In this document: positions 6,101-19,264 of the stretch, one piece after another
How positions within the stretch are numbered: position 1 is the first letter of the stretch
How the letters are laid out: each line of letters starts with the position of its first letter
Virus record (IMG/VR): IMGVR_UViG_3300020474_000074
Span: 1-29,204 of that record
Reading direction: 5' to 3' (one strand)
DNA from: a virus
Lineage: Duplodnaviria; Caudoviricetes
DNA length: 29,204 nucleotides
Program-made: the position numbers and the translations under genes
Notes under the pieces: model-generated
Told to the model about the DNA's origin: nothing
The model's input: only the letters and a program-made list of their open reading frames with translations
Databases searched by the model: none

Positions 6101-7225
6101 TCAGAATGCAGAAGGAGCACTAGCACCAACATACAGTTCAACAGCTGCAGCGGGGTTAAGATAATCAGCGCCACATGCCAAACGTCCGAGCATAACATCA
6201 CCTTGATAAATCACGGAGACGTCGCCAGAAGTTACTTGTACTTGAGGACCAATTGCTTCAACCATACCGGCTGCTTCTTTTTGGAAGATAAGACCACAGG
6301 ACTTAGCACCGAATTGGGTTGCAGTACCATAATCATTGTTGATTCCAGTTTGTGCATCAGAAGCATCTTCAAGGGTTTCACCCACGAAGTCACCCACATT
6401 AGTAGGTGAGGTTACTCCCGTAGTACCACCGTAAGCAGTACCATACTTGCCAAGGAATGGGATATTCATTGACTTGTAAATCTTGATACCAGCAATTTCA
6501 ACAATACCTTGACCGGACTGCAAGGTAGAACCTTGTACGTCACGGTTAACAAGACCATTAGTACCAACAGCTTGGATCAGTTCATAGTACTGACGGGGGT
6601 TCAGGACAGCAACACGGCCATCAGAAGATACACCCTTTTCATCCATAGCTGATGCAGCATCATAGAATGCAGTTACCAGGTTAGCAGCAACATAAGCATC
6701 AGAATCGTTAGTAGTAGCACCAACACGAATCTGAGTACCACCGGGCTCTTCATAGTTAGTAGCACTAACAGGAGAAGCCTTACGTGCACCACGTGCAATA
6801 GCACGGAATACAAGGCGGTCATACTTTTCTGCCAAAGCGTAGCCGATTTTACGACTAATTTCTGAGCGCAGATCGTAGTGAGCAAGAACTTCATCAAGCT
6901 CATAAACAAATGCTGAGCTGATCAACAAATCATCACATGTGATTGTCTTCTCAGCTACTGGAGGAGCATTGTTGCTATCTCCAAGAATAGAATTACCAGG
7001 AGTATGGAATTCACTTTTTGTACGTCCAGTGAAAATGAACTGCATTGATTTGCCGTTCCTAAGCGTACGCTTCATGATCAAATCACGAGCGATCGTATTT
7101 CGCTGGAAGCCTTTGAACATCTCACCTGAAAATAATTTCAAGTAAAGAGCGCGGGTATCACCCGACAAGTTAGACTGACCCAGCTGAGTTAGCTGAGCCG
7201 GGTTAACAGAAGATTGAAAAGCCAT
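6101..7225 (-). CDS. Major capsid protein (T7 gp10-like)
   Basis: 'ALYLKLFSGEMFKGF', 'RTLRNGKSMQFIFTGR' and 'YDLRSEISRKIGYALA' are typical of cyanopodovirus capsids. 374 aa. Confidence 0.95.
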   Translation of the reverse strand: MAFQSSVNPAQLTQLGQSNLSGDTRALYLKLFSGEMFKGFQRNTIARDLIMKRTLRNGKSMQFIFTGRTKSEFHTPGNSILGDSNNAPPVAEKTITCDDLLISSAFVYELDEVLAHYDLRSEISRKIGYALAEKYDRLVFRAIARGARKASPVSATNYEEPGGTQIRVGATTNDSDAYVAANLVTAFYDAASAMDEKGVSSDGRVAVLNPRQYYELIQAVGTNGLVNRDVQGSTLQSGQGIVEIAGIKIYKSMNIPFLGKYGTAYGGTTGVTSPTNVGDFVGETLEDASDAQTGINNDYGTATQFGAKSCGLIFQKEAAGMVEAIGPQVQVTSGDVSVIYQGDVMLGRLACGADYLNPAAAVELYVGASAPSAF

Positions 7226-7252: not shown

Positions 7253-7338
7253 CTCAAAGATCTTTGAGTTATTTAATTTGTATTGTGGTCTATCCCACCG
7301 TCTAGACGGCAAAGGGTATCCGCGTACGGGCCAATGCC
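7253..7338 (-). promoter_or_regulatory. Structured leader upstream of the capsid gene
   Basis: Perfect palindromes CTCAAAGATCTTTGAG (7253-7268) and CCGTCTAGACGG (7298-7309). Also a CCG-TACG-CGG hairpin inside a GGCA/TGCC stem, and a GTGG/CCAC hairpin. Confidence 0.45.
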
Positions 7339-7341
7339 AAT

Positions 7342-7383
7342 AGTGAAGAGGGGAATTGCACCCCTCATTAGATCTATCTCACT
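7342..7383 (-). other. tRNA-half-like (acceptor stem plus T-arm) RNA element, copy 1
   Basis: AGTGAG-ATAGATCTAAT-GAGGGG-TGCAATT-CCCCTC-TTCACT. Confidence 0.5.
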
Positions 7384-7426
7384 TAGTGTACTTTACACCG
7401 CGATAGCAATAAGTCTTGCCTTGCAT
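7379..7426 (-). CDS. Downstream peptide (DUF4278-like), 15 aa MQGKTYCYRGVKYTK
   Basis: YRGxxY signature, AAGGAG Shine-Dalgarno at 7433-7438, immediately downstream of the riboswitch. Confidence 0.8.
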   Translation of the reverse strand: MQGKTYCYRGVKYTK

Positions 7427-7448
7427 AGTATTCTCCTTTTAAGAAGAT

Positions 7449-7677
7449 CTAACTGTCCCGTTCCATACAGCTAGTGTCATGCGTCCATTGATTTATTAAA
7501 AGATACTTCTAATACCATTCTATCTAAATCAGATTTTAATCTTATTAAAGCCTCTTGTTCTGATGGATCACCACCAGGCCAAGTTTCTAGATATTTAGAT
7601 ACTGCTTTATGTGTTAAAACAATCCAAGTATCATTAACTGTTATTTGAAAGAATTCCATAAATCAATGAATGAACGG
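7449..7677 (-). ncRNA. Downstream-peptide / glutamine-II riboswitch with an expanded P2 loop
   Basis: Minus strand CCGTTCA-[13-bp stem, 161-nt loop]-CGCA-TGACA-CTAGCTGT-ATGGAACGGG-ACAGTTAG. CCGTTC can pair with loop GAACGG as a pseudoknot. Followed by a YRGxxY peptide ORF. Confidence 0.78.
7477..7659 (-). CDS. Hypothetical protein, 60 aa, WPGGDPxEQ motif, nested in the riboswitch
   Basis: ATG-initiated and on the coding strand. The WPGGDP.EQ motif is recalled from small picocyanobacterial/cyanophage proteins. Confidence 0.65.
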   Translation of the reverse strand: MEFFQITVNDTWIVLTHKAVSKYLETWPGGDPSEQEALIRLKSDLDRMVLEVSFNKSMDA

Positions 7678-7685
7678 ACGTATGT

Positions 7686-8720
7686 TTATGCAAGGTCTAG
7701 TGGGAAATTGTGTGCATTACGTTCATGCATAACTTCCATACCCAATCCTGCTCTGTTGAGTACATCTGCCCAGGTATTAATAACGTGAGTGTTATTATCA
7801 ACAATAGACTGATTAAAGTTAAAGCCATTTAAGTTGAACGCCATTGTAGAGACACCAAGAGCGGTAAACCAAATGCCAACAACAGGCCAAGCGGCAAGGA
7901 AAAAGTGGAGACTACGGCTGTTGTTAAAGCTAGCGTACTGGAAAATAAGCCTACCAAAATAGCCGTGCGCTGCAACGATGTTGTACGTCTCTTCTTCTTG
8001 CCCAAATTTGTAGCCATTGTTATGAGATTCATTTTCTGTTGTTTCACGTACGAGAGAAGATGTGACCAAAGATCCATGCATAGCTGAAAACAGTGAGCCA
8101 CCAAAAACACCAGCAACTCCCAACATGTGGAAGGGGTGCATGAGGATGTTGTGCTCGGCTTGGAATACCAACATATAATTAAAAGTACCGGAAATGCCAA
8201 GAGGCATAGCGTCTGAAAAGCTACCTTGTCCAAAGGGATAAACAAGGAATACAGCGGATGCCGCTGCCACGGGTGCGGAGTATGCAACACAAATCCAAGG
8301 GCGCATGCCCAGGCGATAGGACAATTCCCATTCCCTACCAAGGTATGCATAGATACCAATAAGGAAATGAAAGATGACAAGTTGAAAAGGTCCACCATTA
8401 TAGAGCCACTCGTCGAGTGAGGCAGCTTCCCAAATGGGGTAGAAATGTAGACCAATGGCGTTGCTGGAAGGAACAACAGCACCAGAAATGATGTTGTTGC
8501 CATACATCAGTGAACCTGCAACAGGCTCGCGGATGCCGTCGATATCAACCGGAGGTGCGGCGATGAAAGCGACGATGAAGCAAATGGTAGCGGCAAGCAG
8601 TGTGGGGATCATTAGTACTCCGAACCAACCAACATAAAGACGGTTGTTAGTACTGGTTACCCAGTCACAGAAGTTCTCCCAAAGATTATTTTGTTGTTGT
8701 TGTGAAATTGTAGCTGACAT
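7686..8720 (-). CDS. psbA: Photosystem II reaction centre protein D1
   Basis: [52 protein letters not shown]. 344 aa. Confidence 0.99.
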
Positions 8721-18869: not shown

Positions 18870-19067
18870 TTATTTGGCACGTGGTTTATGCTTGGTACGT
18901 AGGTTCTCTATTTTTTTATCTTGTTCTGAAATACGCCATTCAAGATCGTTAATTAATTCTAGAAGTGCATCAAATTTTTCCTCAGTATCCATCTCTTCGG
19001 TTGGACAACCGTAAACTGGATGTTCATAGCCAATCTTGTTTTGAAAAACATCGTTTGTATATCTCAT
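18870..19067 (-). CDS. Hypothetical protein
   Basis: 65 aa, coupled by TAATG, coiled-coil C-terminus. Confidence 0.6.
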   Translation of the reverse strand: MRYTNDVFQNKIGYEHPVYGCPTEEMDTEEKFDALLELINDLEWRISEQDKKIENLRTKHKPRAK

Positions 19068-19264
19068 TAGTTAACCTCCTGTGTTTTTGTTGGGCGCATT
19101 GCTTCCATGAAGGGAACCATTGCATTATCACCTTGGGTAGTGCGAATGTAATCAAGACATTGAGCTAACTGCCAATCGGCAGAGGCGCGCATATTCTCGG
19201 GGTCACAAGGGTGAACAGAGTCTTGGATTTGGTCGCAGATCTCGTCAGTCAGTGGGTGTGTCAT
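19067..19264 (-). CDS. Hypothetical protein
   Basis: 65 aa 'HPLTDEIC...MRASADWQL...EAMRP'. ATGA overlap with the MazG-like gene. Confidence 0.65.
   Translation of the reverse strand: MTHPLTDEICDQIQDSVHPCDPENMRASADWQLAQCLDYIRTTQGDNAMVPFMEAMRPTKTQEVN

Follow-up and report, generated by a model that had tools for sequence, protein, structure and literature searches.

The window, the whole 29.2-kb stretch of viral DNA analysed here, belongs to a T7-like cyanophage, judged from its gene content (T7-like RNA polymerase, split DNA polymerase, portal, scaffold, hli, psbA, capsid, and tail genes). The element described below lies on the minus strand and is flanked by psbA and the major capsid gene (Table 1). 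The D1 protein of the window terminates at PLDLA (7686–7700) without a C-terminal extension; many relatives carry ~15 extra residues. Ahead of the capsid gene, within 7281–7366 (minus strand), are a hairpin (GAGGGG-TGCAATT-CCCCTC; 7348–7366) and a conserved stretch ending GCCGTCTAGACGGTGGGATAGACCAC, both of which recur in many related loci with the switch present or absent. The 7281–7366 region has no Rfam match and may be a structured leader in its own right, or a processing site.

Table 1 Features of the psbA–capsid interval, listed in the direction of the minus strand
Feature	Position	Strand	Evidence or remark
psbA (D1), upstream context	7686–8720	minus	PF00124, E 1.4e-89
5' pseudoknot strand C1-G2-U3-U4-C5-A6, CGTTCA	7676–7671	minus	sequence; numbering of PMC6698751
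P1 5' arm TTCATTGATTTAT	7670–7658	minus	ends in AT, the first two bases of the nested start codon
Nested gene of 60 aa (PHROG_628), protein predicted as a hairpin of two helices	7659–7477	minus	phrog_628, E 1.6e-14; pLDDT 90
P1 3' arm ATAAATCAATGGA	7496–7484	minus	made up of the nested gene's final codons
Linker strand C17-G18-C19-A20, CGCA	7483–7480	minus	within codons GAC GCA; stop TGA next
P2 hairpin CTAGCTGT/ACAGTTAG, 8 pairs	7474–7467/7456–7449	minus	RF01704 3' half and covariation
P2 loop ATGGAACGGG (A33–G42), completes the pseudoknot	within 7474–7449	minus	
Hairpin TCTTCT/AGGAGA over Shine-Dalgarno AGGAG (7437–7433)	7447–7432	minus	folding, −4.3 kcal/mol
15-aa peptide MQGKTYCYRGVKYTK, YRGVKY motif	7426–7379	minus	translation
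Major capsid protein gene, downstream context	6101–7225	minus	PF21703, E 7e-73

An earlier note on this DNA had described the interval as a glutamine riboswitch with a protein gene inside it, and the sequence confirms all of the listed elements at their minus-strand coordinates. The stem that closes across the nested ORF consists of 13 pairs, one of them G-U, as claimed; among 200,000 shuffled versions of the 187-nt span, 2 give at least 13 pairs at the fixed anchors. The note called this gene-bearing stem P2, but it corresponds to P1, and the hairpin carrying ATGGAACGGG is P2 (PMC6698751). The pseudoknot pairs C1:G40, G2:C39, U3:A38, U4:A37, and C5:G36 are present (7676–7672 with 7459–7463), as are the P2 hairpin bearing the AUGGAACGGG loop and the positions of the long-range contacts C19:G41 and A33:G42 (G41, 7458; A33, 7466; G42, 7457). 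The pocket nucleotides named in PMC6698751 (C1, G2, U4, G18, C19, A33, G35, A37, C39, G40, G41, and G42) are all in place.

At the gathering score, Rfam has no match anywhere in the window. Below that score, it sees the 3' half of RF01704 alone (7449–7504; 15.6 bits vs 33; E 0.26). On a sequence profile trained on 57 compact phage copies, the native window matches in two pieces (17.5 and 7.5 bits), and the window with the loop removed in silico gives one full-length match (26.8–33.9 bits); 40 compact copies, a large share of which had served for training, score 31–58 bits on this profile. A separate model from the same 57 copies hits the two aptamer halves separately, the 5' pseudoknot strand region included. 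Glutamine-I (RF01739), a three-way junction with no pseudoknot, was rejected: it has no match in the window at E up to 10, and GAACG sits in the loop of a covarying hairpin, which places the element in class II, not class I. The absence or presence of the pseudoknot separates glutamine-I from glutamine-II (PMC6698751). All conserved nucleotides of the Downstream-peptide (glutamine-II) type are present and both stems covary, so that the fold type first proposed is upheld. By sequence and structure, the element is a glutamine-II-type riboswitch, a variant of RF01704.

A conserved CGTC(C) (7677–7680) adjoins C1 on the upstream side and is complementary to GGACG (7482–7488) at the end of P1. The CGTCC/GGACG complementarity is present in most compact copies and is paired in the minimum-energy fold of the window; this pairing is a candidate ligand-free alternative.

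The nested protein aligns through residues 2–56 with positions 8–65 of the 66-position PHROG_628 profile, and relatives occur in 218 phage records. The dN/dS of the gene is 0.13 (66 sequences), 0.11 (27 sequences), and 0.22 (10 sequences of the window's lineage); a row of 5 mixed sequences that is out of register was left out. With this family membership and a dN/dS of 0.11–0.22, the conservation expected of the 60-aa ORF is borne out. As far as these comparisons of sequence reach, the nested ORF is a genuine gene, conserved and under purifying selection. In the T4-like phage S-CAM8, the gene is free-standing behind a baseplate gene, with no switch motifs adjoining. In a weak protein tree (55 rows, 58 columns), the free-standing rows needed 3–4 changes, and one change is still compatible.

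The nested protein has no Pfam family, no solved-structure match by sequence, and no PDB fold match at E 0.001. It falls in no named Atlas cluster; 201 representatives are unnamed. Identity with NblA was rejected, as there is no NblA family in the Pfam results, including those for 22 nested members and 40 distant relatives, and no fold match. The nblA gene of T7-like phages is located downstream of an exonuclease or HNH gene (PMC12695635).

Covariation of the gene-spanning stem, which the earlier note proposed to look for in relatives, is found across lineages. MAFFT aligns the AUGs and misplaces the P1 arms; therefore, P1 was counted by anchored scripts. Pairs 2–6 of P1 are paired in 0.91 of cells vs 0.64 ± 0.03 for shuffled partners, and none of 5000 partner shuffles reaches the observed pairing (38 distinct arm combinations; kinship ignored). 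With the register slid by 1–3 bases, pairing is 0.31–0.54 (178 distinct sequences). At least five of the first six positions are paired in 157 of the 178 sequences; pairing at positions 7–8 is close to background, and position 1 is constrained in part by the search patterns. Within a single lineage, the arms follow a compensatory path through wobble intermediates (TCTTCT/AGAAGA, TCTTTT/AGAAGA, TCTTTT/AAAAGA, TCCTTT/AAAGGA), and a second within-lineage series is TCTATG/CATAGA, TCTATG/CATGGA, TCCATG/CATGGA. In P2, both sides change at all eight pairs, and 94.8% are paired (48 long forms). The pseudoknot pairs are invariant in 48/48 long forms, which is conservation without covariation, partly fixed by the search patterns.

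The codons that form the arms show no synonymous change, and the gene interior shows much. In particular, the Ile of the P1 3' arm is encoded by ATA in all 38 cases (related sequences), vs 24 of 271 Ile codons in the gene interior. On this pattern of substitution, the stem closing across the gene is kept by compensatory changes, and the conserved gene-in-aptamer architecture is very probably real. The same data bear on the idea that gene insertion split the switch and left a non-functional relic. The element does score below the Rfam threshold, the switch has been lost independently in L416 and L426, and P1 of the window is not favoured in the folding model (see below). However, the stems covary, the aptamer core persists across nested proteins as low as 34–80% identical to the window's, and synonymous change is confined to the gene interior. 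We consider a dead relic very improbable.

Pattern scans and other loci together give 178 distinct sequences of the gene-bearing long form. Gene-bearing loci make up 50/67 and 88/89 of the viral pattern matches and 108/113 of the metagenome matches; the scanned collections overlap, so these are counts of pattern matches and not of genomes, and core invariance in pattern-found loci is built into the patterns. In a sample of 120 viral switches found by the 3' half alone, 105 are compact (P1 span 10–24), 5 intermediate (38–44), and 10 long (161–187), and all 10 long forms hold the PHROG_628-type gene. A scan of P1 gaps of 190–220 gives three matches, none with a nested gene; gaps of ~45–140 and >220 are covered by the 120-locus sample only. 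Rfam passes 4/4 compact loci (37.7–59.3 bits) and 0/4 long loci. Among 129 long viral loci, psbA lies upstream in 110 and the capsid gene downstream in 97, within the available DNA.

Because pattern searches risk circularity, we ran a protein-led search with no RNA pattern and examined the 80 best-ranked of 577 loci; the ranking was by similarity to the window's protein, an order that favours nested forms. Twenty-three of the 80 have neither aptamer half and neither psbA nor the capsid gene nearby. The remaining 57 are podovirus-type loci, and 52 of them have both halves. Two of the other five are cut by contig ends, and three show partial or total loss of the switch (L416, L426, and L427). 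In L416 the gene is intact, and P2 and the peptide are cleanly deleted; L416 shares its contig with L003, recorded in the set of 14 loci below as having kept the gene and P1 and lost P2 and the peptide. L426 (1165–1420) has lost P2, C1 and G18 are changed, and its arms CCCATT/AATGGG leave six P1 pairs. Among 14 loci found with the protein, 11 of 12 close relatives have a complete switch, and two distant loci have none. The phage of L427, whose gene is free-standing, has a separate RF01704 match above the cut-off elsewhere (L660:754–808, G003); this match precedes a longer ORF with two YRG motifs, and its core looks altered.

The L426 locus, which lacks the ligand-binding bases and P2 and still pairs its arms, is what would be expected if the long P1 duplex, with or without glutamine, determined how the transcript running from psbA to the capsid gene is processed or how stable it is. 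Also in line with such a role, P1 in several long forms is predicted to continue through the gene as a long, irregular rod. Contigs from RNA libraries cover the element, wholly or for the most part, in separate short pieces (runs X1, X2, X3, X4, and X7), and one contig (X7) reaches into psbA; DNA carry-over is possible, and strand, ends, and level are not readable from the contigs. On the other hand, the retention of the ligand-contacting bases together with P2 at 52 of the 57 loci exceeds the needs of a plain duplex, L426 is a single case that may be recent decay, and a promoter and terminator scan of the element found nothing, including no terminator-like site. A role in mRNA fate alone is thus improbable in our judgement.

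A cultured representative exists. In Synechococcus phage S-SBP1, the long form encloses gp32 (record positions ~18974–19200), and the YRG peptide lacks an annotation; the main text of the S-SBP1 transcriptome paper does not contain the word riboswitch (PMC7885011). S-SBP1 was found by a DNA search with the element of a related lineage, not the window's own, and the same search gives 3'-half matches in P-SSP7, S-TIP37, S-RIP1, and others. The window's own element, compared with cultured phages, gives only two short chance matches, in RB49. A search of host genomes with a phage-specific pattern, which may miss host versions, gives one match, on a phage-like contig of a metagenome bin.

Downstream of the aptamer, a YRG-type motif is present at 128 of the 129 long viral loci. 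By sequence, the 15-aa peptide of the window is likely of the IF17-like/DUF4278 kind; it is too short for a Pfam scan, and the corresponding 35-aa stretch of S-SBP1 has no Pfam match. A Shine-Dalgarno hairpin similar to that of the window is present in L008, L010, L043, L143, and L171, and not in L334 or L413. In the compact Prochlorococcus MED4 switch, reporter output rises after ammonium, which makes it an ON switch (PMC6212724). In 115 long forms, the modelled accessibility of the downstream start rises from a mean of 0.41 to 0.49 on folding, with an increase in 74%. In the window, it does not rise, and the Shine-Dalgarno sequence lies in its own hairpin in both states. On these models, reciprocal control of the downstream peptide by the folded aptamer is plausible, with slight support.

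The element could accordingly be read as an ordinary ON switch for the YRG peptide, with a gene placed in the tolerant P1 loop to save space and not regulated by glutamine; ribosome traffic would merely lower the fraction of folded RNA. Compact switches with the same kind of peptide at the same psbA–capsid site, the MED4 reporter result (PMC6212724), the modelled rise in downstream-start access, and the persistence of the gene where the switch is lost all fit such a switch. The position of the nested start codon does not: the AUG lies within 3–12 bases of the P1 start in 174 of the 178 sequences, with 2–3 of its bases paired in P1 in 117, and a folded pseudoknot so near the AUG should hinder ribosome loading, given the size of the ribosome footprint. 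We regard an ordinary ON switch as rather unlikely. The earlier note held that folding hides the nested AUG; this stands for the 117 sequences just mentioned and falls for 58 of the 178, in which no AUG base is paired.

Folding models are consistent with closure of P1 in most long forms. The modelled probability of P1 exceeds 0.5 in 90 of 115 long forms, from a model that credits neither the pseudoknot nor the ligand, and the unconstrained fold of S-SBP1 contains both P1 and P2. For the window's own sequence, the probability is 0 to 0.58 and varies with the stretch folded; a local hairpin competes with P1, and forcing P1 costs 0.7–6.7 kcal/mol. Within the window's lineage, the probability is at least 0.89 in 10 of 14 members. 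The modelled accessibility of the nested start region, constrained vs free and with the pseudoknot unscored, is little changed or higher in many lineages.

The reading that we cautiously favour, from the sequences, is that the riboswitch works as a glutamine-dependent OFF switch for the nested gene and that translation of the gene unfolds the sensor. The stop codon follows the linker as GAC GCA TGA in 129 sequences and lies inside the 3' arm in 47. What does not vary is the placement of the pseudoknot strand and P1 immediately upstream of the nested AUG. From the positions of the AUG and the stop, the pseudoknot strand and P1 would therefore occupy the region where a ribosome loads, and a translating ribosome would have to open P1; the footprint size of the ribosome underlies this argument. 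The 3' arm, together with G18 and C19, which contact the ligand, is made of the gene's final codons; given the roles of these two bases in PMC6698751, we infer that a translating ribosome and the fold must collide sterically. For compact switches, P1 and P2 are reported to be present before ligand binds, and glutamine stabilises the pseudoknot (PMC6698751), suggesting that the glutamine-dependent step is the locking of the pseudoknot. The crystal construct has its P1 loop swapped for UUCG, and glutamine binding persists in an aptamer divided at the linker into two RNAs (PMC6698751). A block of initiation would follow from this behaviour of compact aptamers and from the cover of the loading region by the pseudoknot and P1.

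The OFF switch would operate as follows. Long-range pairing would close P1 on the new mRNA. At high glutamine, the pseudoknot would lock, 7676–7672 pairing with the P2 loop; the locked strand would lie 13–17 bases upstream of the nested AUG, with P1 reaching into the AUG, and ribosome loading would be barred. At low glutamine, a ribosome would load, cross the P1 3' arm with G18 and C19, and halt beside P2, so that the aptamer would be reset and further rounds of translation favoured. In the weakest step, the folded state would probably favour the downstream YRG peptide, as in the compact host switch. In T7, the fast phage polymerase outruns ribosomes; polymerase outrunning ribosomes here would leave P1 time to form. 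Evidence counter to the OFF switch is that the gene persists without an intact switch in L416, L426, L427, and T4-like phages; the marginal P1 of the window, the 58 sequences whose AUG is outside P1, and the modelled accessibility of the nested and downstream starts also speak against it.

The element shares with RF01704 the P1–pseudoknot–P2 order, the pocket nucleotides, and the downstream YRG peptide (PMC2864571, PMC6212724, PMC6698751), and with the compact phage copies that pass Rfam the same genomic site. Unlike RF01704, window-type P1 spans 152–188 bases vs 10–44, and it surrounds a protein gene that lends its first and last codons to P1 and the linker. In the founding alignment, the P1 loop block is ~85 columns wide, as counted from four rows, and the accessible text of that paper describes no gene-sized insert (PMC2864571). 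Glutamine riboswitches have been reported in phages, with no nesting described in the available part of the report (PMC9004378). The nearest likeness is the metE B12 riboswitch of M. tuberculosis, in which a translated ORF (uMetE2) lies inside the aptamer (PMC11260477). The uMetE2 ORF differs in having ~15 codons (+123 to +170) and limited conservation (PMC11260477), whereas the phage ORF has 54–60 codons, belongs to a family with free-standing homologues, takes up most of the aptamer length, and occurs in many lineages. Our literature search, which took in few subscription papers, found no description of a gene-enclosing glutamine riboswitch and no published precedent for a full conserved gene inside any riboswitch aptamer. 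The earlier note knew of no described riboswitch that encloses a gene, which stands for a full conserved gene and gives way for a short ORF (PMC11260477); the gene-enclosing glutamine-II form appears new. Structured RNA that tolerates a whole gene is also seen in group I introns, whose peripheral loops can hold the gene of a homing endonuclease. The intron is a ribozyme and its gene a mobile element; the phage RNA senses a metabolite, and some bases of its binding pocket belong to the gene as well.

The layout is not confined to class II. Among 49 class-I-like (RF01739) pattern matches, four loci (L618, L621, L650, and L652) bear a gene, a 55-aa ORF starting MFEIALPL between arms that pair at 7–8 of 8 positions. 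As in the long glutamine-II form, a small gene occupies an equivalent stem-loop and is missed by standard scans; unlike that form, RF01739 switches have no hairpin-loop pseudoknot. The 55-aa ORF gives no match to the PHROG_628 profile (L618 and L652 tested). Because the class-I-like cases carry an ORF outside the PHROG_628 family, comparison of these sequences points to repeated, independent origin of the gene-in-aptamer layout. Forty-five of the 49 class-I pattern loci (L611–L659) have a second, inner CGTTCA, and most of these share one upstream start, TACGTTCACAGACCCAGT, which precedes the 3' motif by ~180 bases; they possibly represent a double or interlocked class-I layout.

A wider reading, which we offer tentatively and hold to be doubtful, is that a self-enclosing switch evolved at least twice in cyanophages, in two glutamine classes and around unrelated genes. 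The sensor's own loop would be the regulated gene, and the passing ribosome would reset the switch. A single ligand would turn the enclosed gene OFF and the downstream glutamine-synthetase-inhibitor-like peptide ON, and the whole would form a bistable nitrogen toggle directly before the capsid gene.

In a textbook riboswitch, the sensor is followed by the gene that it controls. In the phage element, the gene lies within the sensor and contributes bases to its binding pocket, so that no separate expression platform would be needed and the ribosome would in effect be a ligand competing with glutamine. Because Rfam misses the long forms (~8%, 10 of the 120 sampled viral glutamine-II switches), counts of phage riboswitches are too low, and other riboswitch classes may hide likewise. 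S-SBP1 on Synechococcus WH7803 is a cultured phage–host pair with published infection RNA-seq, which allows direct testing. The nested gene would tie a common, uncharacterised family of cyanophage proteins to the nitrogen status of the host.
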